A DNA stretch of 64,000 nucleotides from Prorocentrum cordatum (Eukaryota), in NCBI GenBank assembly GCA_963575745.1, contig CAUYUJ010000103.1, positions 186,001 to 250,000 on the forward strand. The letters run 5' to 3'. A program made the position numbers and the translations under genes. Every line of letters starts with the position of its first letter. Within the stretch, counting starts at the first letter, position 1. Under the pieces are notes generated by a model that did not search any database, was not told the DNA's origin, and saw nothing but the letters and a program-made list of their open reading frames with translations. Below are positions 49 to 63,760 of this stretch, one piece after another.

Positions 49-23047
<22,999 letters not shown>

Positions 23048-31436: not shown

Positions 31437-32497
31437 TTGCTGCACGTCGGTTCGCGGCTTGAGGTGGGCGGCCAGAGGCCGCTGCTAAAGTTCCTGCTGC
31501 CCCAGTGCATGACACGCGGCAGAGGCTGGCGACAAGACAACGATGCCCAAGCGACGCGGGGGGCATCATGGGGGGCGCCGCAGTGGCAATTGGGTACATT
31601 GCAACAGGGCTGGCAAGCCTGGATGGGCCAACTGCAAAACATGTGGGCCAGAGTGGCAAGCACCAGCTACTTCGAAGCCGCCAGCAGGAGGCCAACCGTC
31701 CAAGATGCAGCTCAGCCGATGGTGGACCTTCTCAGGAAGCAGTACATCGTGGCGCGTGAGCAGACTGACCAGCCCCGCATGGATGAGATCCTCGCAGCCT
31801 GCCCAGACGCCAAGCCACCAGTCCCTGCAGCGGTCACCGTGCCGTCCACGGGACAGGTGCTCCAGGAGGCTGTCGCCGAGCTCAACCGACTCCAGAAGCA
31901 CCGAGATAAGCTGGCCAAGCAGCTCGAGCGTGCCACCGAGTGCCGCAACGACGTGCTCCAGCGGATCAACACCAATGTGGCCGAGCTGGCAGAAGCAAAG
32001 CGACAGTTCCATGAGGCAAAGGCTGATGTTGGAGAAGTGGTGCCCGAATCAGAGTATGCCAAGAAGCCGGATGATGACGAAGAGGCTTCCCCCACCTTGG
32101 ATGAGGAAGAGTTGGCAATGTTGGACGCTAAGCAGAAAGAAGAATATGAACACATTCAGAAATAATTCCAACAGGCCAAGCAGTACATCGAGGGCAGGAA
32201 GACAGCCGTCAACAACGCGAAGAAGGCGCTCGACGCAGCCAAGACGTTCAAGACTAAGGTCTGCAAGAGACGCCAAGGAGAAGATGGAGCTGACACCAAG
32301 TCGGAACCAGACAAAAAGCTGGAACCGCAGCAACATCAGCCGTATCAGGTGCAGCACCATCAGCCATGGACCCGCAAATCGAGCTCGCCAACCAGTGCGA
32401 CCTCTCAGATGATGCCCAGGTCCAGGCCTACCTCGTGCAGCTGGCCCAGATCAAGAGCAGGACGAAGGTCGCCGTGGCTACGAAGCAGAGCTCCTAA
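31437..32497 (+). pseudogene. LINE ORF1 (gag-like, zinc finger plus coiled coil)
   Basis: Frameshifted W..CN..CKTCG..W motif; long heptad region; premature TAA at 32163. Confidence 0.65.
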
Positions 32498-32889
32498 CCA
32501 CCGCCAGGATTTCGCTGACGTTGAAGCCGAAATCGAGGGCTTCGCACTAGCAGCGTCTGCTGCGAAGGGGGGTGAGCCAAACGTGGCCACTGCTGCCGTC
32601 GGTGTATCGAGCGGCAAATCCCCACTCGAAGCAGACCTTCATCAGGGACCAAGCGGCCCGCCCAAGCTGGCGTTCCAGAAGCAGGTCTGGTTCGACGACG
32701 AGGTTGACTACATCATCGAGAGTGCGTCTACTCGAGCAGATGATGACCCAGGCAATTCTCAGTCGTGTTTATCATCGGGGAGTTCTAATTCTTCGCCGTC
32801 GTCGGACGACCTAGTCCGTGCAGTTGCGCAGAGTATTAGTCATGGGTTCCAGACCGAAGGCGACGAAAAGCAGAGCCAGTTCGACGAGG

Positions 32890-35800
32890 CAAATACCATC
32901 GCCACGATTTCCATGGCCAACATAACGCAGTACAGCGCGGCCGCCAAGGCTTACATCGAGGGCAAGAGCAAGCAGTGTGACATCATGGCGCCCAATGAGC
33001 ACCATTTGCGTGGACCAGCAGCGGAGATCGAGGCCAATCGGCTGATGAAGTATGGTTGGCGATCCCATGGAACGTGGGCCCCAGCGAGACCATCCCCACC
33101 TTCGAAGAAAGGCGCCTTGGGAGGCACCTGCATACTTCGACGTCGACATCTGGACACGCGCGCACACCTGCCAGACGCGCAGGGCTACAGTATTTTTGCC
33201 AAGGAGTTTCACGATATCTCCATAATCAAGTGGCAGCTCAAAGGACAGCAGATTGCAATTATCACGGCATGTCTCACGGCATCAATTGGCTTCACTGGCG
33301 AGAACATCTCGCAGGATGAAGCAGTTGATGCTGCTGACGAAGAGCTTGGGCAACATACCTTGGATGATGCGTGGCGACTTCAACGAAGCGCCCCAGGAAT
33401 TCGAGGCGACGCCCTGGCTTGAATCACTTGGAGGATCTATTGTCGTGCCCCAGCACGCTAGGCATACGTGCAACCGTGGAAAGGGGCGCCTCATCGACTA
33501 TGTGATTATAACCCCAGATCTTCGGCCCCTAATCGAGCAAGTACGAGCTGAACACGATGTACCTTGGTCACCGCGCATCGGCGTCGTCGTCGAACTATGG
33601 GCCAGGCCGTCGACCACTCTCATACGAAAGCCCATGCTCCCGGCTAAACGGCCCATCCCCATGATAGAAGTTACGCGTGAGAAGGGCATCAAGAGGCAGC
33701 AGAGGGGCCGTACTCAGTGCAACGAAATGGCCCAGTACCTTGAGGATGACCTCCTAGACAGGAAATTGCTGGGTAAGCATTACACGGAGACGGTCACCAA
33801 GCGCTGCGACCAGACCAGCTGGGCAGAGTGCCTAAAGGAGGAGGCATCCTGCCGAATCCGCGGTGCTCCAGTGTGGATACGGAACTCGTTAGCTTACCAG
33901 CAGGGCCCGAGGATGAGCGAGCTTCTTGGACGACTGTATGGCAAATGGGCGAATGCTGCAGAGCGGGCTTTGTCAACCATTACCGGTGCACCGTTGCAAT
34001 CGCGAGCTCGTTGCTGCCAGCCGACATGTTACAAAGAGGTACCGTATCCACAGCATATCGCAGGCAAACCAAAGGGCGACACCAAGGCGGACGAGCAGCA
34101 GCGCATCAGCACCCTCTGGACATCAATGTCCCATAGATGCCGAGTCGGAGCCCTACTCTTCCAGAGACACCCCATTGAGATTAAGCCCCACTTGGAAGCC
34201 ATCTGTATCATCATTAAGAGTGTAGCCAGCCAGATCGACAAGCTTGAGAGCACAAAGGTAGCCGAGATTGGTTACTTGGACAACCAGGCTGCTCTACTCG
34301 CTCGGCGTGTAAGCAACCTCGGCCATGACCCCGACCCTGAGGTAAACGCCGGGAATGTCCAGGAGTGGCAGGACGCGGTAGGGCTACACGGCTCCGAATG
34401 GAATGGCAAAATTCTCAAATGTGGGAAAAAGTCAGAGAGCAGATTGGACAGTGGACGAGGGCGGCCTTGTCGAGCAATATGCCTGATGCACATAGGTACG
34501 TCAGCAAACATGAACGACGGGACCTACCTGATACGTTAGTGGACCCAAGCAGCAAAGAAGAAACGGGATCACTAAGGGAAGCTACGGAGTGCCGCGCAGG
34601 GGCATGGCAGACAAGGTGGCAGAGGCATAACAATAGCGAGCAGCTCGAGCAGGCCATGACAGAGCTTCGACGAGCAGCTCAGGCCGAACTTCCTCAGCGT
34701 GCGTTCTACGATGTTAACGACCTCGAAGCTGCACTTCCCCAATTTCGTCCCGCGACGGCGCGGGGGCCCGATCAATGGCAGCCGCCTGAGATCAACGCCC
34801 TACCAGATGACGCCAAGCGTAGCCTCGTTTCTGTGATAAACTCATGTGAACGCAACTTGTCCTGGCCTCATCGATTTTACCATCTTTGGTACCATCTATT
34901 GGTCAAAGCTGGCTCCAATACAGCAGGCGAGGAGCGCCCGATTGGCTTGCCACCTTTCCCAGTGCGGCTTTGGGGTAAGATGGCAAAATCGGAAATGCAC
35001 GAATGGTGAGCAGAAAAGGCAGGGCATTGGGATGCAGCGATTCAAGGATCTTCAGCTTTACGCGCAGCAATGCTGTCGATGGCTCTCGACGAAACCAGCG
35101 CGAAGCTCAAGGGATCGTTCTGCGGCGCCCTCTACTTAGACTTGGAGAAATTCTAGGACAGCGTGGACCTCAGCATCCTGATCAGGAGGGCAAGGCAACT
35201 CAACTATCCGGCGGTTAATTATATATGAGTGTGCCGATGTATCGTTCGCCGCGCATTGCCAGAGCCTGCCATGATCATGCAGAACCCATCTGCCCATGGA
35301 ATGGCATAGTCCCAGGATGCGCTGCAGCTAACCATGCAGCAAGGGCCATGATCTACGTCATATTGGATAAAACGCACAATGCAGCACCCCTGGCTATTGC
35401 ACGTGAGTTTGTCGATGATCTACGCACCAGAGTTGAATGGCACCTTGCGGACTTCAAGGAGCAGTTCCCTGTGGCAGTCGTTACCATGGTAGAAGCATGC
35501 TTGGAGTCTAAGCGGGTGATATCAGGCAAGTCGGCACTACTGACGAACAGCGTCGAGACCAAGAAACACATCGCGAAGCAGCTGAAGCAGAAAGGCATAG
35601 CGGTCAAGACGCCGAAGTACGTAAAGAATTTAGGCATTGATGCGGCGCTTGGACGGCACCGAGTCACAGCGACGCGCACGACCAGGACGAAGCAGGCCAA
35701 GCTAATAGCAAAACGGGCCGAGCTTTTCAGCAAGCAGAAAGGACGCTGGCGCCGCAGAACAGCCATGCTTTTCAACTCGAATCTCAGAGCGAAGCAAAGT

Positions 35801-38430
35801 TATGACTGGCCAGTTTTAGGGCTCAGCCCAAGTGCAGTTCGAGATGCGCGAGCTCAAGCAGCTGATATGGTGGGCTTCAGTACTGGAGGCAGATGCACCT
35901 CCACCATCAACGTGATCTTCTATGGAGAGAACGAGCCCGCCACAGCCTGCTTACAGCGCCAAGTACGAGAATGGGTACAGACATGGCAGCGCGAATCTCC
36001 AGCGCACGACCGACTTCGACAAGGATGGGACCATGTAATCCAAAGATTCAAAGCAATGAGACCACGTGGACGGTGGAACTCAGTCACTGGACCCACGGGA
36101 GCGCTAATCTCATCATTACAACAGCTTGGATGGGACCCGAATCAGCCAGATGTATGGGAAGATCCACGCGGAAGCATTTGGAAGTTCAGGGACGATGACG
36201 AGCTGGATTTCAAAGACATCACGCGTACCATCGCTCAAGACATGGAGGCGCAGCTCTGGCTTAAGGCAGCGGACCACTACTGCGGCAAAGGTATGCAGCG
36301 CGGTATGGGCACGACCATGCTCAAGAGGACCCTACAGAAGCTCCGCAAAGCAGACCGCGTACAAGAAGCAGGAGCGCTCGAAGCCCTTGCGCGTGGTGCG
36401 TTATGGACTGGGCAACGGTGCAAAGATGCTGGATATCGTACCGACGCCAAATGTCCAAGATGTTCCAAAGCAGCGGATGCCATCAAGCACAGGCTATACG
36501 AGTGCGAGATGAACGACAACCTCAGCATTCAGGCGGTTGTCAAGTCTCAGACTCTCTGCAGAAGAGCGCTGGAAGAAATGTACAACGACCCTGACATTGA
36601 GGCCTTCTGGCTTCGTGGACTTCTCCCGCAGCATCGTAACCCAGTGCCGCCACCGCCGGTTTGGGGATCTTGGGATGGGAGCTATTGGGCCACGGCCACA
36701 GATGGCCCTACGGCTTATGCAAAAGAAATGGTCACCATCAGCCCAGTCCGGTGTTTTTTTGCGTTTGTGGACGGATCTGGAACCAGCAACGATAAGCGCA
36801 TCAACAGAGTTGGATGGGGATTCACACTTCAGCTATGCGACGGACAGGCACAGCATAAACTAGGACCTGAGCGACTGTGGTGCCAGGCTAGTTCTTCGCA
36901 TGCCATGTTGGAATCAGGCGATGTGGTACAGACCCCAATGGACGAGGACACGGAGCAGGTACACAAGGACGTGATGAACGACCTAGGTGTTTGGGCAGCG
37001 ACGTGGACAGTGGCTATTGACAACAATGAAGGTCGAAACCATGACAGCTGGAAGCTATGGGGCGAGCCGTGCATGCAGCAGTTCTTATGCCAACCTGAGC
37101 AAGCACGACTACTGCAGTTTCTCAGGACACGCTACCAGACCAGGAGCACCAGCAGCATTGTAAAGGACCTATGTGACATGAACTGGCGCACGTCCAAGAA
37201 GAGGCGCAAGGGGGTGCATGACTATTACCTCACGCTCCATGGACGGGAAAGGGAGGCTCACGTCAAGCACTGGTTCAACAGCGTCTCGGATATCAAAGAG
37301 AAGTTTCGCCAGCTACTTCGGGACCGGGCTCCCACCTTCGAACAGGAATTCCCTGGGCATTATGGCGGCAGCGAGGACGTGAATGAAGACACGGCGCCAC
37401 ACTTTCTTACCCATGCCCTGAGCACCAACAACGGGCCTGACACCAGCAACAGCAAGATCGACGACACGCCCCACATCGGCTTCTACGGCATGGTTGACGG
37501 AGAGCAAAGTGTACCTGCCTCGGGACATGCTGCATTGTTCTGGGCATTGGCGCTCACAAAAGGACCGATCACGATCTATACTGACTGTCAGCAAGTGGTG
37601 AACTGGTGGACCCAACGTTTCTACGACAAACCACAGGGTGCTCTCCGTGAATGGTGGGAACGCGTCCAGAGCATGATTACACGCCGACCTGGAGGAGCAG
37701 AAGATGTATGTGTCATTAAGTGCCTATCTCACCTTGATCTAGAATCAATCAAGCAGCCCAAACAAGCCTTCCACGTCAGTCTGGGAAATGAGATGGCAGA
37801 TACCATAGCTCAACGTGGCGCTGAGGAGGCCATGAAGGACATACGTGGCGAGGTCAAGCAACTAGCCGAGGTCGAGACCCTGCTGATGCGTATTCAGCGA
37901 CGCGGCGCGGCCATCATCCATGAGTTCTGCAAGGGCGCTGACCCGACCAAACTGGACAGACCTCCGCACCTGCCCAACCAGTTAATCCGCCAGCGACGAG
38001 AGAAACGCCGCCAATTGGAAGAAGTTTCAGGCCACAACACGCGGAAGGTAAAAGGGCAATGGGTATGCCAGGGGTGGTGGTGCTCGCCTGGCAAGTATAG
38101 TTTAGTGGAATGGCTGAAAGCGAATGTATGCATCGGACGACAGTATGAGACCCACCGAGCTGATCACGGACACGCCGTAAAAGTACCAAACAATGAGATG
38201 ATAGAGGTCAACGACAAGGTCATTCACCCCAGCCATGCGATATCAGTTGCTCATGGGCAGTTCTGGTGTTAGACCTGTGCTGCGGTAGCTTCACACAATG
38301 ACGACGGACATGGGCGAGTGTCTCTGTTGGCGACAAAGTGCAGAGAGCAGATCACCACGAGTGGCCAAACTGTTCTCCGCCGACTCCGTCAAGGACTACC
38401 TCCAAAGGCGGGCTAGAACTGGCCTGACGG
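32890..38430 (+). pseudogene. LINE ORF2 polyprotein (endonuclease, reverse transcriptase, RNase H)
   Basis: ORF pieces 32349-33422, 33253-34539, 34365-35009 and 35225-38272 joined by frameshifts and stops. Confidence 0.9.
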
Positions 38431-55636: not shown

Positions 55637-56452
55637 CGCTGGGAGTAGCCTGGCGGAAGCAAGCGTTCGCAGGACAAAACAAGGACTGGATATGAGAGAG
55701 AATGTGGGCGACGATGGCAGGGGAGGAGAGGGGGAGAAAGAAAGGGGCAGAGGACTTGGCAAGGGCAGGGGAATGGAGGGGGGAGGGTGGGAGGATAGGA
55801 TAAGCGGACAAGAAACGGCTGACAGGGAACGTCATGGGAAGGCCACCACAGGCCACTCATCTCAGGGGTTCCAGGGCCAGCGCTCGGAGGACGAGGGCCA
55901 AGGTCGAGCAGGGCCGCGAAACTGCCTCCAAGGGTCTCGCCACAAGGGGGGGGGGTGAAAAAATAATGGCGCGGGGAGACGGGCAAACATTTGCACTGAG
56001 AGCTCACCCCCTGCCGCGAACCACCGGCCGTTGGCTGCCGGCGCCCTGGCCCCTGCGGCCTCGGCGCCGCGGAGGCCCCGAGAGGCGGGGCGGACGAGGG
56101 GAACGGGGCGGGGTGGGAGAGGCGGGGGGGGGGGCGGGGGGAATTTTTCGGAGCGCCTTCCCCCACTCCTCCTCCTCCCCCCCCCCCTCCCCCCCCTCCC
56201 ACCCCCCGCCCCTTCCCCGCCCCCCCCGCCCCTCGCCCCCCGCCCCCCCCCCCCCCTCCCCTTCCCGCTTCCCGCGCACCCCGCCCACCCCCCCTGGCGC
56301 TTCGAATTTTGTGCCCGCCCCCCCCCGCCCCCCCCTGGCGCTTCGAATTTTTCTGCGCGCCCCCCCCCCCTTTTTGGGCCCCTCTCTCCCCCCCCCCCCT
56401 TCTGGGCACCCCTCCTTCCCCCGCCCGTCCCCCGTTGTTTCTGGCGCTCCGA

Positions 56453-56493
<41 letters not shown>

Positions 56494-56683
56494 AGGACCC
56501 CCATCCCCCCGGGGTCGCGAGGTCGTCGAACCCCTCCGAACGGCCGCCCCGCAGCTCTCAGGGAGGGGTCGGCAGCGCTGCGCGGCGCCGCAGGGGGTCC
56601 GTCTAGAGCGGACCCAAGACTCACGATACCTTAAAGCATCAAAGGTAGACATCATAATAATCCAACGCGAATCGAAGCGGATA

Positions 56684-56853: not shown

Positions 56854-57294
56854 TATCCTCCTCTGTGAGCTTGCTATTTTCAAGGGTCAGACTGCCGTTG
56901 CCTTTCTGATCTCGCAGCGTTTGGGGTAGGCCCACGGCGGCAAGTCCGCTCGCAGACGCGGACGTTCACCGTTGTGGGCGGGCACGAATCGGCCACGGTT
57001 GCGCGTAGGTCGCGCGCGCGGCAGTGCGACGCGACCGCGGCCTCGCTGCGCAGGCGCGGGCCATCGCGCCGTCGCGCGCCAGGGTTGCGCGTCGCGGGGG
57101 GGGGGTCGCTGCCCCGCGGCGCGTGCGCTTCGCAGGTGATTTGCTAGCGCCGGGGTTGCGTCGCCGCGGGGGGGGGTCGCTGCCCCCGCGGCGCGTGCGC
57201 TTCGCAGGCGATTTGCATTTGGAGGAGGCGCCGCGCGCGCGCCCCGCGCGCGCGCGCGGCGGGTGCCTCCCTGGCGCGCTATCTTTCTCTTCTT

Positions 57295-57665
<371 letters not shown>

Positions 57666-58439: not shown

Positions 58440-59210
58440 CCTGGTCTCGGGCAAGGCGCAGGCCCCAGGGCAAAGTTCGCGCGGGGGAGGGCGCAGGCCT
58501 TAGGATCCCTGCGTTTTGGGTCGGGCGCTGGCCCCAGGACCCGATCGTGCGTAAGGGGGAGGGCGCATCCCGTTGATCCCTGTCTTGGGTAGGGCGCAGG
58601 CCCCATGGCCCGATGGTGCGAAGGGGGGAGGGCGCATCCCGTAGATCCCTGTCTTGGGTAGGGCGCAGGCCCCAGGGCCCAGTGGTGCGAAAGGGGGAGG
58701 GCGCATCCCGTTGATCCCTGTGTGTCGGGTAGGGCGCAGGCCCCAGGACCCAACTGTGCGAAGGGGGGAGGGCGCATCCCGTTGATCCCTGTGTGTCGGG
58801 TAGGGCGCAGGCCCCAGGACCCCGTCTTGCTGGGCACCGCTCTCCTCGTGGGTCGGCCCGCGGGCCTTGTCTCAGGCAGGGCGCTGGCTTCTGGCTCCTC
58901 GTCTTGTGTGGGGGAGGGCGCTGGCCCCTGGTACCGTGTCTTGGGTGGGGCGCAGGCACCGGGGCCCAATCGTGCGAAAGGGGGAGGGCGCATCCCGTTG
59001 ATCCCTGTCTTGGGTGGGGCGCAGGCCCCAGGACCCATTTGTGCAAAGGGGGAGGGCGCATCCCGTTGATCCCTGTGTCGGGTAGGGCGCAGGCCCCAAG
59101 ACCCCGCCTGGCTGGGCTCTGGCTTCTTCTTGGGAGAGCTCCCGGGCCTTCTCTTGGGTTGGGCGCAGGCCCCTGGTCTTCCCCCTCTCGTGAGGGGCGC
59201 AGGCCTGGTC
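58440..59210. repeat. ~60-70 bp minisatellite (GGGCGCAGGCCCC..GGGGAGGGCGCATCCCGTTGATCCCTG)
   Basis: Repeated units immediately upstream of the gag-like gene. Confidence 0.88.
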
Positions 59211-59319: not shown

Positions 59320-60906
59320 ACGGGCGACCTCGGCAGTTTTCTTGGCGCCTTGGACGGCGCGTCGGCGCGCGAGGCCGGTTGGCTCGAAGCCACGGCGACC
59401 GCGCTCAAGGGCCAAGGTGTGGTGACGATCGCCGATTTAGAGGGCGCGGCATTCGAGGATTTCTCTTTTGCCGACAAGGAGCTCGACGCCGCGCAGAAGC
59501 GCCTCGTGCGCGCGGGGATCGCCGCGGCGAGCGCGCCGGCGCCGGTGGCTGGGGGCTCGGCGGCGGCCGCCCCTCCAGCGCCCTCGGCGGCGGAGAACGC
59601 GGCCGCCCTCTTGGCCGCGCTCAAGACGGGCACCAGCGAGGCGCAAGCGATCTCGACGCGATCTCGGGCTCGCGTGGCCCCGCGCGGCGCGTTCGCAGGA
59701 AAAGCCGGCCCGCGTACTCTTGGGCCCTCTCCTCGGCAAGGCGTCGCTGGCCAACCTCCCGCAAGAGTTCTGGCCCAGGCGCGCTCGCGCGCGCGCTGGT
59801 TCTCGCATCTGGTCCCGTGCGCCGGTAGCTCCGACATGCTTGACGCGTTGAACGCGGAAGTCTTGAAGCGGCAGAAGAAGGAATCCAGCGAGGAAGCGCG
59901 CGTCTTCCTGTACTCGGACATCCGCAAGTGGGTGCCCGAGTGGGCCCGCTCGGGCCCTCGCGATTTCGAAGAGGAGGCTGACGGATCGTCCGGCGCCAGC
60001 AAGGACATTCGTGACCTCGCCAAGGCTCGCGCCGCGCGCGCGTTGCCTGGCCCGCGCGCGGGCGCTCGCCCCGCAGGAAGTGGCGGCGGTGAAGAAAGGG
60101 CCCGAGAAGAAGGCCTACTTAACCCTCTGCCAGTGGCAACTGGCTTGGAACCGGCGCCACCTGCCCGTCGCGCGCCCCCCCCGCGCGCCTGCCTGTTATC
60201 GCGCCGCGCGCGGCAGGTACATGGTCGCGCTGGTCGCCACGGGCCAGCTCACGTGGGCTGAGGTGCAGGCGCATCGCGACAACTGCTTGAAGGTGGCGGT
60301 TCAGGCTGCACGCGCGCGATTTCTCGTCGCTCTCTGTTCGCCGCGCGTTGCCGCGCAGGCGGCGGCCTCGAAGCGCCGCGTGCACCTCGGTATCGTGTGC
60401 GACGAGGAGGCGCGGAAGGCGCGCCCCTGCGTTCGTGCTTGCGCGGCGCCCTGCGTCTGTGCCGGCGCGTGGCAGCTATGGGCCGAGCAGCTACGCTCGG
60501 GGGACCCAGATTTCAAGCTGGGGAAGACGATCCTGCGGGTCGACCCGCGCGCCCTACAGCTGGCGCGGGATGCTTGCGACAAAGAAGACGGCGCCACCCA
60601 CGCGACGGCGAGCGTCGCGCCGCGCGGATTCGCTTCTGCCACCTTTCTCCGCCGTTTCCGCGCGCGCAGGCACCGGCGGCCCGCGCTCCCGAGAAGGCGC
60701 GCGGGGCGGGCGGCGCCAGCCAGCCGTGGCGCGCCGCGCAGAGCTGGAGCAGCGGCTCCTGGGGCAGCGATTGGCCGAAGGGCCAGAAGCGCGAGCGCTC
60801 GTGGGGCAGCGATTGGAAGAAAAAGGACACGAGGCAGGTACGGACGCCGCCGCGCCCGGCGCAGCGCTGAGCGCCGCCCTGGCAGGGCGCGCGCGAGCCC
60901 CCGTAG
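59320..60906 (+). pseudogene. Intron-containing gag-like gene of a DIRS-type element
   Basis: Start reads ACG. GC-AG introns at 59641-59698, 59779-59828, ~60025-60076, 60154-60216, 60305-60358, 60419-60475 and 60608-60669. The spliced product has W.LAW.RY..A....Q......H and DE..R..W helical motifs typical of DIRS ORF1. Confidence 0.65.
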
Positions 60907-61400
60907 GGGTGGGGCCCCTTCAGCCGTCAGAACGGCTCGCGCGCAAAAGCCTGCCTCCGCCCGCGCCGGGTCGGGGCCGTGACCCGGGCGCGCCCGATAG
61001 TTCTACGCTTTGTCGCTAAAAATGGCCCCGTGCGCCGTGCGCAGGACCCCCGCTCGCGTGCTGGGACATGCCGCGTGCGCTGTTGCCGCGGAGGCCGCTT
61101 CGCTTTCCGCGCCGCGCTGCGAGTGCCCGGCTTGGCCGCGGCCAGCCTGGGCGGGGCGCGCGGGGGAGTTCCGCGGGGCAGCGTGCGTTCCGAGGGCGCT
61201 TTTCGGTGCGCTTTGGCGCCTTGTCCACGTCCGCGGTTTGCAATCTTGCGCAGTGCCTGCCGTGCCGGTGCCGCCCCCGCCGCCCGCATCTGGCGCGCGA
61301 AAGCGGGCGGCGCCTGGGGCTGCATGCGTCGTCGCCAAATCTCGCAAGGCGCGCTTTCCCGGCTCTCGGTCGCGCGCGAGCCAGCGGCGCGCGTCAGGTG

Positions 61401-63760
61401 ATGCCGGCGCCGCCAGCGCCACCAGGGCCGCAATTCAGGAGCGATTGGTCTCGGCGTTGCAGCGACAGCGCGTGGCGCGACATCTGCGTCGCGGCCGGCG
61501 GCTGTAGCGGCGGCGACGCGGAGAAACTTACCTTTCTGGCAAGGGCGCTGGACGGCGACCCCGCGCTCTGGGGCAAGTGGCGGCCCGCCGCGGCCTCGGC
61601 TTTGCCGCCCACGGCCGCTGAGGCAGTGCGGTGGGCCGCGCAGACCGCCCCCGCCGACGTGGTGGCTTTCCGCGAGGGCGAACTCGCGGCGCTTCGCGAA
61701 AGGGATCGGGCTCTCCGGGCCAGCGGCGCCGTGGAAGAATGGTTCCGGGGGGTGGGCCCCGCCATGCGGCGCGTCGCACAGCACGTGAACGGGTCTCTCT
61801 GCGCAGAGATCGCGGAGCGCATTGCCTTCTGCGACCCAGGCTGCGTGGCATTCTTCACGACGGGGGCGCCCCTCGTCGGCGAGCTCCCGCGGTCGGGCCA
61901 CGGCAGCCCAGAGGTGTTCCCTCCCCGTCTGGGCATCGCGGAGCTGCTCGGCAACGCCGAGTCGACAAATCGCGACATTTCCTTTGGCCTCCGCGACGGC
62001 GCGCACGGCGACGCCATCCTCCGCAAGACACGGGACGAGGCCGAGCTGGGGCGCATCAGTTGCCCGGTGCCGCTCCGCGACGTGTGCCTGGACGGGGCCG
62101 TCATCGCTCCGAGGTTTGTGGTTGAGCAGCTCCGTGAAGACGGGCCCTCGAAACTCCGGTTGGTCGACGACGTGACCAAGGCTAGGATTAACGAGGCGAC
62201 GCGGCCTCAGGAGCGGCTCCACCACGATGCCGTGGACGCGCTTTTCGAAGCAGCTCGCATCTTCCAGGAAGTTGCGGGGCGGGCACCCGCCCTCTGGAAG
62301 GCAGACATCGACGCTGCCCATTCGCGCTGAGCACCGCCGGTTCGCTTGGATCGTGTTCAGCGCCGCCGGGCAGGTCTGGGCGGCGCAGCACGCGGCAGCG
62401 CCCTTCGGGGCCACGTCGTCGGTGCACAGCTGGGCGCGAGTGGGTGCCTTCATCGCGGAGGCGGCGCGCGTGCTCTTGCGGATCGCCGCGCTGCGATACC
62501 TGGATGATTATTTTGGGCCGGATCACCCCGAAGTGGTGGAGCACGCAGCAGCGCAGCTGGCGGAGCTGATTCAGCTGATGCTCGGCCCAGGCGCGGTGGC
62601 GCCGGACAAGATCGCCTGGGGGCCCCCGCTGGTCATCCTCGGCCTCGAAATCAAGGCGGGGCGGCCTTGGCGCGACGCGCCGGCCGGCCGGCTGTGCGCA
62701 TCGCCAGGTGCTGCCACGCGCGTTCTGCGCGCGTCCCGCACCCGCGAAGACCGCCAAGTGGCAGCGTGTCATCGGCGAGGCGCTCGCGACGCGCGCCCTC
62801 GCGCCAGGCGGCTCGCGCGCCCCCCCTAATGTGTCGGGACCTTGCGTTCGCTGTGCAGGCGCATCGTCCAAGCTGGCCGGGGGCTTGGCCTGGGCAGCGT
62901 CGCATCTCTTCCGCCGCCTGGGGCGCGCCCTCCTCAGGCGCGGCGCTGCCCCCGCGCGCCCGGGGGGGCGGGGCGCTGCGCTTCGTGCTCGCAGGCCGTT
63001 GCACGCGCAATCGCATCGCGGGGAATCGAAGGCCCATGGGCCGTTGATGCTTGCCCTGCAGTGGTGGCGCGAGGTCTTGGCCATGGACTTGTGCCAAGCG
63101 CGGCCGTGGGCCGACAAGGCGCGGCCTCGCGCAACTCTCTTCGCGGACGCGTCGGGCCAACCACCGCGCGTGGCCGCGGTGCTCGTCACCGCCACGGGCG
63201 TCCGTTTCAATTCCATGGTCGTCCCGGATTCCTTGATGGCGTCGTCCCAGCGTCGCCGGGACAACCAGATTCAGGGGCTGGAGCTCCTGTCTATCGCGCT
63301 GGGCATGTGCACCTTTGCAGGCATTGCTTTCGCGTGCGACTGCCCGCGCCGGCGGGCAGGTCCGGCCCCTCGTCTTCGCTGCGCTCAGGGGAAGTGCAAG
63401 GTTGCGACTTGCATATTTACAGCGACAATACCGGCGCGGAGTCTTGCCTGCGGAAGGGCGCCGCGAAATCCTTCGACCACTCGTGCATCGTCCACTCCAT
63501 GTGGAGGCGCGCGGTGGAGCTCGACGTTGACCTCGCGGTTTTCCGCGTGCCCACGGCTGAGAATCTGGCCGATTTGCCTTCTCGGCGCGCCCGTGCGCGC
63601 CGCGCGGTGCTGCGGGCTGGCCGCGGGCGCAGCGTGTCGCAGGGGGGGCGACGAACTCCTGCTACGCATCGGCGCGGTGCGCACGCGCCCGTGGCTCGAC
63701 GAAGAATTCTGGCACGTGGGTGCCTGGGGCGCTCTCTCTGCGGCCCGCCTCTTCGGCTAA
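61401..63760 (+). mobile_element. Intron-containing DIRS-type reverse transcriptase / RNase H gene
   Basis: RFVVEQ..KLRLVDD, WKADIDAA, PFGATSSV, YLDD, ILG. RNase H: ADAS, NQIQGLELL, SDN, NLADLPSR. Five GC-AG introns (62656-62707, 62808-62858, 62938-62994, 63321-63388, 63585-63642) and one frameshifting deletion at ~62318. Confidence 0.88.

Follow-up and report, generated by a model that had tools for sequence, protein, structure and literature searches.

Introduction

Genetic elements that multiply by way of an RNA copy do not, as a rule, keep introns. We have analysed a stretch of 64,000 nucleotides (nt) from the dinoflagellate Prorocentrum cordatum (contig CAUYUJ010000103.1 of assembly GCA_963575745.1, positions 186,001 to 250,000, forward strand), hereafter the window, in which positions are counted from its first letter. 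It holds the 5′ two-thirds of one copy of an element whose pol gene, for a reverse transcriptase (RT) and RNase H, is broken up by five short segments. We consider it likely that this is a dead copy of a multi-copy retroelement of the DIRS order, that the five segments of its pol are spliceosomal introns, and that the template from which the family multiplies keeps them.

Ogre elements, the long terminal repeat (LTR) retrotransposons of legumes, are like the window family in being LTR-type retroelements with a pol region interrupted by intron sequence, which in Ogre is spliced in part of the transcripts only; they differ in their plant hosts, in having a single intron and in their DDE integrase. 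Cryptons share the tyrosine recombinase with the window family, without its RT and RNase H, and may contain introns since they move as DNA.

Penelope-like elements keep introns after transposition and have been called “highly unusual” for it; as the relevant part of PMC8557442 describes them, they have a telomerase-like RT, a GIY-YIG endonuclease and one or few introns, often in the 5′ untranslated region. Unlike them, the family studied here combines an LTR-type RT with RNase H and a tyrosine recombinase. The DIRS elements of Symbiodinium (de Mendoza et al. 2018), as far as they are treated in the sections of PMC5890265 used here, likewise encode RT and RNase H in pol and, behind it, a tyrosine recombinase in a gene of its own; both groups are hosted by dinoflagellates, a DDE integrase was seen in neither, and the RT lies below the Pfam cut-off. 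However, the Symbiodinium elements were modelled and described there as intronless, against five pol introns here and up to 12 in relatives, and in our family the interruptions appear to extend to the gag-like and recombinase genes, and no methyltransferase domain was seen. Our literature search found no description of intron-rich DIRS-type elements, although the supplements of the P. cordatum genome paper, which lay outside the search, may bear repeat annotations; in the DIRS1 overview PMC3266345 the word “intron” occurs 0 times.

Five predicted introns in pol

The pol region (about 70% G+C) is read in frame 0 from 61401 to 62327, in frame 1 from 62314 and in frame 2 from 62708, then again in frame 1 from 63389 and in frame 2 from 63643, up to a stop codon at 63760. 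The original prediction, made from the sequence alone, had proposed that these frames are joined into one colinear RT-RNase H by removing five GC..AG segments of 52, 51, 57, 68 and 58 nt. The positions and lengths of the segments were borne out, and an alignment blind to splice motifs agrees with them. Colinearity held in so far as no gap is left at any of the five junctions in the profile alignment, yet a frameshift caused by a 14-nt deletion at 62316 remains. All five segments start with GC and end with CAG followed by G, four of them are preceded by AG, and their G+C content is 71–88%.

These boundaries were examined with a profile made of 26 uninterrupted relatives of at least 540 amino acids (from the series P0007–P0043, with P0024 and P0038 excluded since they matched in two stretches). 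With the five segments removed and an X placed at the frameshift, the window reading scores 741 bits as one domain over profile positions 7–652 of 653; retaining intron 1, 2, 3, 4 or 5 alone lowers this to 390, 722, 719, 612 and 721 bits, respectively. When both ends of each segment were shifted by up to 21 nt (601–617 candidates per segment), the given length was the best at all five, and the GC..AG boundary ranked 10th (1.3 bits under the best), 1st, 1st, 1st and 2nd. A spliced profile alignment with no splice-site term placed five gaps of exactly 52, 51, 57, 68 and 58 nt; judged by random placements in the same DNA, GC..AG-G ends would coincide with all five gaps by chance with a frequency of 3e-9 (±3 nt of slack) or 7e-7 (±10 nt). 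Introns 2 and 3 (51 and 57 nt) are in frame and stop-free and are marked as non-coding only by homology and by the indels of the paralogues described below.

The splice sites are those of the host: Table 2 of PMC10666404 gives 51.4% GC donors and 79.7% AGG acceptors for the P. cordatum genome. As judged from the sequence, the five segments are short, G+C-rich spliceosomal introns of the host's usual splice-site type, which would be spliced out of the transcript. Over 61401–63760 no joints appeared in the DNA-like sequencing run X1, and two runs supposed to be RNA, X2 and X3, contributed no sequence; neither outcome bears on expression or splicing.

Dinoflagellate introner elements are, according to the parts of PMC10666404 and PMC7789003 drawn on, short introns flanked by short direct repeats at AG-G. 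The window introns are also short and lie in the same kind of genome, but clear inverted repeats are lacking at their ends, where the longest inverted match is 5–7 nt, with none in intron 4. Moreover, within this gene family, similar introns at different sites amounted to 2 weak pairs against 86 same-site pairs, and an introner origin was set aside.

Predicted introns among the paralogues

Seven contig open reading frames (ORFs) with 81–97% identity to the window copy continue through the introns without a break. Since alternative frames are open in such G+C-rich DNA, which makes plain tblastn too noisy, the paralogues were compared with the window in a frame-aware alignment. In this alignment, 22 of the 23 indel events among the seven paralogues, leaving aside the window's own deletion, fall within introns and one falls in an exon (in P0158), the introns making up 12% of the compared length; the paralogues are related, so that the events are not all independent. 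The read-through identity is lower in the introns in six of the seven. Paralogue indels are present in intron 1, whose donor is GC or GT depending on the copy, and in the region of introns 2 and 3 frame-shifting indels lie inside both in-frame segments. All nine paralogues whose sequence extends over the introns contain the intron DNA; a close copy free of introns did not turn up among the paralogues examined.

It could be argued that the segments are no introns at all, but insertions that a pseudogene acquired by chance or in the course of decay, or else coding loops, given that two of them are in frame and stop-free and that the window copy is a pseudogene. This is exceedingly improbable in view of the splice-type ends shared by all five (3e-9 to 7e-7 by chance), of the frame-shifting paralogue indels within precisely the two in-frame segments, and of the relatives described next, whose segments share an extended splice consensus and have lengths spread evenly across the three classes modulo 3.

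Predicted introns across the environmental relatives

A metagenome scan with nine family members yielded 79 loci, whose records may be DNA or RNA. In the motif-blind alignment of these loci we counted 359 gaps no longer than 400 nt and excluded five that exceeded this limit. G[TCA]..AG ends at a score-equivalent offset were found at 282 of them (50.6 expected), and ends of the AG-G type at 245 (14.9 expected), mostly GT-AG-G (185) and GC-AG-G (58). The introns have a median length of 58 nt, with a 5–95% range of 52–66 nt, and their lengths modulo 3 are distributed as 101/80/101. At least one such pol intron is carried by 65 of the 79 loci (1–12 each), at least five by 30 loci, and 12 by L067 and L074, whereas frameshifts are only eight, in seven loci. 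The consensus of 207 non-redundant introns reads AG-GT(C)RNGT, a T-rich tract and GCAG-G. The remaining 77 gaps have no splice ends; they are concentrated at profile positions 220–226, their lengths are mostly multiples of 3, and they are better taken as a variable loop, probably coding, than as introns.

Intron sites in the relatives number 90. Window intron 2 has its site and phase in common with two environmental lineages and intron 5 with six, which could reflect inheritance or parallel gain at AG-G sites. In a tree, the window falls among intron-rich lineages, and the loci that lack introns form a cluster of their own. Two pairs of close relatives differ by one precisely bounded GT..AG-G segment: about 54 nt present in L011 (4468–4523) and absent at about 2857 of L010 (98.9% identical), and about 57 nt present in L040 (1755–1811) and absent at about 1115 of L036 (about 87% identical). 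In both pairs the shorter form equals the spliced form, and the difference may be a loss via a spliced template, a recent gain or, if the record is RNA, a spliced transcript. Taken from sequence comparison, intron retention appears to be a trait that the family shares with a large part of its clade.

The RT-RNase H family

The nearest database relatives of exon 1 are P0002 and P0006, unnamed P. cordatum proteins with 95–97% identity, followed by four contig ORFs (87–90%), while the uninterrupted P0007, of 782 amino acids, is 44% identical. Clusters run to 10, 11 and 29 members. A search with P0007 retrieved 5,461 cluster representatives at E ≤ 0.001, and 405 under the stricter limit of E ≤ 1e-30; many of the matches are uninterrupted ORFs of 540–830 amino acids.

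That this is an RT/RNase H gene, as originally predicted, is corroborated by Pfam matches of RVT_1 in 17 of 38 family members (best E 6e-7) and of RT_RNaseH in six, and by structure. The AlphaFold model of P0007 (predicted local distance difference test score, pLDDT, 83) has as its top Foldseek matches in the PDB the RTs of human endogenous retrovirus K (HERV-K), cauliflower mosaic virus (CaMV), human immunodeficiency virus 1 (HIV-1) and Ty3, at E of about 1e-11. The modelled fold is accordingly of the retroviral/Ty3, that is LTR-retroelement, type. At the catalytic D, DD and D-E-D-D positions the family alignment shows no variation, and the window reading has the same residues; in it, the acidic RNase H residues (DAS, LEL, SDN, N.AD) and the YLDD motif, claimed to be intact, are all present; YLDD is, however, a variant specific to this copy and replaces the YVDD of the family. 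As for Penelope-like traits, fold and Pfam matches point to an LTR/retroviral RT with RNase H instead, GIY-YIG not having been specifically searched.

Other searches returned less. The seven exon pieces of the window pol had no Pfam match, and P0002 and P0006 little or nothing; the same holds for sequence searches of the PDB with P0007, P0006 and profile A1, and for a scan of metagenomes aimed at near relatives of exon 1. The ESM Atlas gave unnamed clusters and RVT_1 only. This weak view of the family through Pfam agrees with the remark, in the portion of PMC5890265 used, that dinoflagellate DIRS RTs align poorly to Pfam.

Architecture of the element

The window ends 240 nt past pol, and a tyrosine recombinase does not lie within it. 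The two nearest relatives extend the picture: P0002 reaches upstream into the gag-like ORF, and both P0002 and P0006 reach downstream into a recombinase ORF, which follows pol in these gene-model fusions. Full-length relatives of the downstream ORF have an invariant R..K..HDxRRGH pattern, and its structural model (pLDDT 67.5) has Cre as its top match (E 2.5e-7), while Pfam Phage_integrase matches it only at E 0.12–0.17. In 27 of the 79 metagenome loci a recombinase gene lies 3′ of pol on the same strand, split into blocks in the intron-rich loci. With a Cre-like recombinase downstream of pol in two paralogous gene models and in these 27 relatives, the sequence evidence supports the DIRS-type claim of the original prediction, and the locus would be a multi-copy DIRS-order (tyrosine recombinase) retroelement of a dinoflagellate host.

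Termini can be approached through the relatives. L032 and L053 overlap exactly at their own ends by 141 nt with 100% identity (1–141 with 7807–7947, and 1–141 with 7420–7560), L018/L019 and L067/L074 are circularly permuted contig pairs, and the elements assemble as circles of 7.4–7.8 kilobases. Split direct repeats could account for this, as could tandem arrays or circles outside the chromosomes. The A-coding-B-A-B repeat layout of DIRS elements, as given in the sections of PMC5890265 cited above, agrees with circularly permuted assemblies; these are compatible with DIRS termini and not specific to them.

The features of the window copy are collected in Table 1. When the region is aligned to the upstream gag ORF of L001, which is uninterrupted, gaps of 63 and 54 nt coincide with two of the candidate introns of the gag region; such pairwise spliced alignments of gag ORFs are noisy, and only these two gaps were used. 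From the sequence, the gag-like ORF probably holds at least three further introns. The depth of the tandem array in the DNA-like run X1 is about 10 times that of the coding part, and tandem arrays also lie in the non-coding part of the relatives L032, L074 and L079. The array may represent the non-coding or terminal region of the element, to which we infer that it belongs.

Table 1. Features of the element copy in the window, all on the forward strand
Feature	Position	Strand	Remarks
69-nt tandem array, 8.8 copies	58483–59104	+	upstream of and adjoining the gag-like ORF
Gag-like upstream ORF region, several frames	59323–61167	+	P0002 maps here with 89–98% identity in blocks
Candidate intron, gag region	60025–60076	+	52 nt, GC..AG-G
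Candidate intron, gag region	60154–60216	+	63 nt, GC..AG-G
Candidate intron, gag region	60305–60358	+	54 nt, GC..AG-G
pol exon 1, first part (frame 0)	61401–62315	+	N-terminal region, RT fingers/palm to KADIDAA; 87–97% identical to P0001–P0005
Copy-specific 14-nt deletion, frameshift	62316	+	inside conserved RT block; family reads DIDAAFRRVPI
pol exon 1, second part (frame 1)	62317–62655	+	RT palm with YLDD, to LEIK
Predicted intron 1	62656–62707	+	52 nt, AAG-GC..CAG-G, phase 0, 85% G+C
pol exon 2	62708–62807	+	RT thumb/connection
Predicted intron 2	62808–62858	+	51 nt, CAG-GC..CAG-G, phase 1, in frame, stop-free
pol exon 3	62859–62937	+	
Predicted intron 3	62938–62994	+	57 nt, CAG-GC..CAG-G, phase 2, in frame, stop-free
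pol exon 4	62995–63320	+	connection and first half of RNase H (DAS, LEL)
Predicted intron 4	63321–63388	+	68 nt, CAG-GC..CAG-G, phase 1, inside RNase H
pol exon 5	63389–63584	+	second half of RNase H (SDN, N.ADLPSR)
Predicted intron 5	63585–63642	+	58 nt, TCG-GC..CAG-G, phase 2, in the Arg codon of LPSR
pol exon 6 and stop codon	63643–63760	+	

The public models of P0002 and P0006 are spliced differently, with a GT..AG placed inside intron 4, for instance, and with part of intron 5 translated; they also run gag, pol, recombinase and flanking exons together as a single protein. At intron 4 they have 19 residues where P0007 has 10, a poorer profile fit than that of the five-intron reading. Among recombinase relatives that are 45–50% identical to the recombinase of P0002, P0167, P0168 and P0169 have extra residues inserted behind the GHAE motif, and in P0167 there is another insertion behind GEWR, while P0161, P0162, P0165 and P0172 are without such insertions. 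The insertions of P0167–P0169 look like read-through introns, at sites that differ from those of the window family.

Two further observations concern the DNA upstream of the element. At 57294–57663 and 56160–56510 there are a (TG)n microsatellite, with about 190 units, and low-complexity tracts rich in C. Farther upstream, 32166–38272 on the forward strand holds long open frames of 418, 437 and 1017 amino acids with a strong A-over-T skew, the longest of which has a weak zf-RVT match (E 3e-4, below the Pfam cut-off); this region may be a second retroelement, similar to a long interspersed nuclear element (LINE).

Decay of the window copy

The deletion at 62316 removes conserved RT residues and shifts the frame, and no intron lies between frame 0 and frame 1 at this point. 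At this site the undeleted paralogues read ADIDAAFRRVPIR, the 14 nt being present in all four that cover it; an X1 contig carries the undeleted form, with a loose end at 62321, and the profile alignment of the window reading is without four positions here. Since this deletion puts the RT out of frame, the window copy is, to judge from its sequence, dead. In addition, the start ATG of P0002 reads ACG in the window (59322–59324), and 14 of the 15 differences between the window and the nearest X1 contigs change the protein. At 63040, in pol exon 4, the nearest X1 contig is one base short, a frameshift that belongs either to the neighbouring copy or to the window.

Decay of this kind bears on the possibility that pol has passed from a retroelement into the service of the host, as a domesticated gene family which gained its introns as any host gene would and is replicated along with the genome. 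The intron density and the type of splice site do resemble those of host genes (PMC10666404, in the part consulted), and exon frames are conserved among the paralogues. However, copies are many and lie in different contigs, with clusters of 10, 11 and 29 members; gag-like and recombinase genes are linked to pol; the copies decay (the 14-nt deletion, the 1-nt deletion in the nearest contig, the exon indel of P0158 and the 14 of 15 protein-changing differences); and the clade comprises thousands of clusters, as the 5,461 hits at E ≤ 0.001 indicate. We therefore hold domestication to be very unlikely. The original prediction had left the choice among a retroelement lineage that retains introns, a domesticated gene and an element replicated as DNA; the first fits best, because of the many copies, their decay and the gag-like and recombinase genes, and the second has lost most of its ground.

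How the introns may persist

If introns are retained by a retroelement, functional copies would make Pol from spliced mRNA only, while the template that founds new copies would retain the introns. The simplest such template would be a full-length RNA that escapes splicing, in the manner of retrovirus genomic RNA, and an occasional partly spliced template would then lead to precise intron loss.

Several points weigh against this proposal. It is a demanding assumption that an RNA template escapes splicing at 5–12 introns at once, and spread at the DNA level would explain intron retention more simply. If the read-through contig ORFs (P0001, P0003–5 and P0157–9) are transcripts, they would be unspliced. 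The window introns, with 51–68 nt, are far below the host mean intron length of 4,709 base pairs (PMC10666404, Table 2). Moreover, the recombinase and the termini of the element lie outside the window, so that the architecture of this very copy is incomplete.

Perhaps, then, the same genes with the same introns belong to a family that multiplies as DNA, through circles that the recombinase excises and integrates, as in Cryptons, or through segmental or tandem duplication. In that case the introns would never have been exposed to loss, and the RT-RNase H would be a relic or serve another step. Such a history would agree with the intron DNA kept by nine of nine paralogues and the failure to find any intronless close copy, with relatives that keep up to 12 pol introns and have an interrupted recombinase gene too, with the circular permutation of several relatives, two of whose contigs overlap at their ends by exactly 141 nt, and with the abundance of duplicated genes in dinoflagellate genomes reported in the portion of PMC10666404 drawn on here. 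Yet the catalytic residues of RT and RNase H and the reading frame have been kept across about 50 lineages at 30–45% identity, and frameshifts are scarce in the 79 loci, which argues that Pol is used. The precise presence/absence pairs fit a partly spliced RNA template, although a new insertion would look alike, and circular assembly is expected for the split direct repeats of DIRS elements also (PMC5890265, same sections). On balance we regard spread as DNA as an unlikely competitor of the intron-keeping template, which we continue to prefer.

More tentatively, the whole of this large and mostly marine clade with RT-RNase H and recombinase may gain, keep and lose introns as host genes do, its template systematically avoiding the spliceosome; we offer this as a conjecture whose chances are less than even. 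Two routes could be imagined for it, with similar reserve: DNA circles made by the recombinase without an obligatory step through spliced RNA, or a dedicated unspliced, possibly antisense, genomic RNA.

Significance

Intron loss serves as a signature of reverse transcription, both in the recognition of retrogenes and in the annotation of retrotransposons with intronless models. A DIRS-type lineage with stable introns would mean that such elements are under-annotated in dinoflagellate and plankton genomes, where Pfam and ORF searches see fragments. The family would also offer a natural system in which to study how genomic RNA escapes splicing, or whether retroelements with a tyrosine recombinase also spread as DNA, and it holds many datable intron gains and losses (90 sites, besides the presence/absence pairs) in lineages known for rapid intron gain. 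If the clade-wide conjecture is true, the rule that copying through RNA leaves an element intronless would fail for a lineage at the level of an order, beyond the Penelope-like elements.

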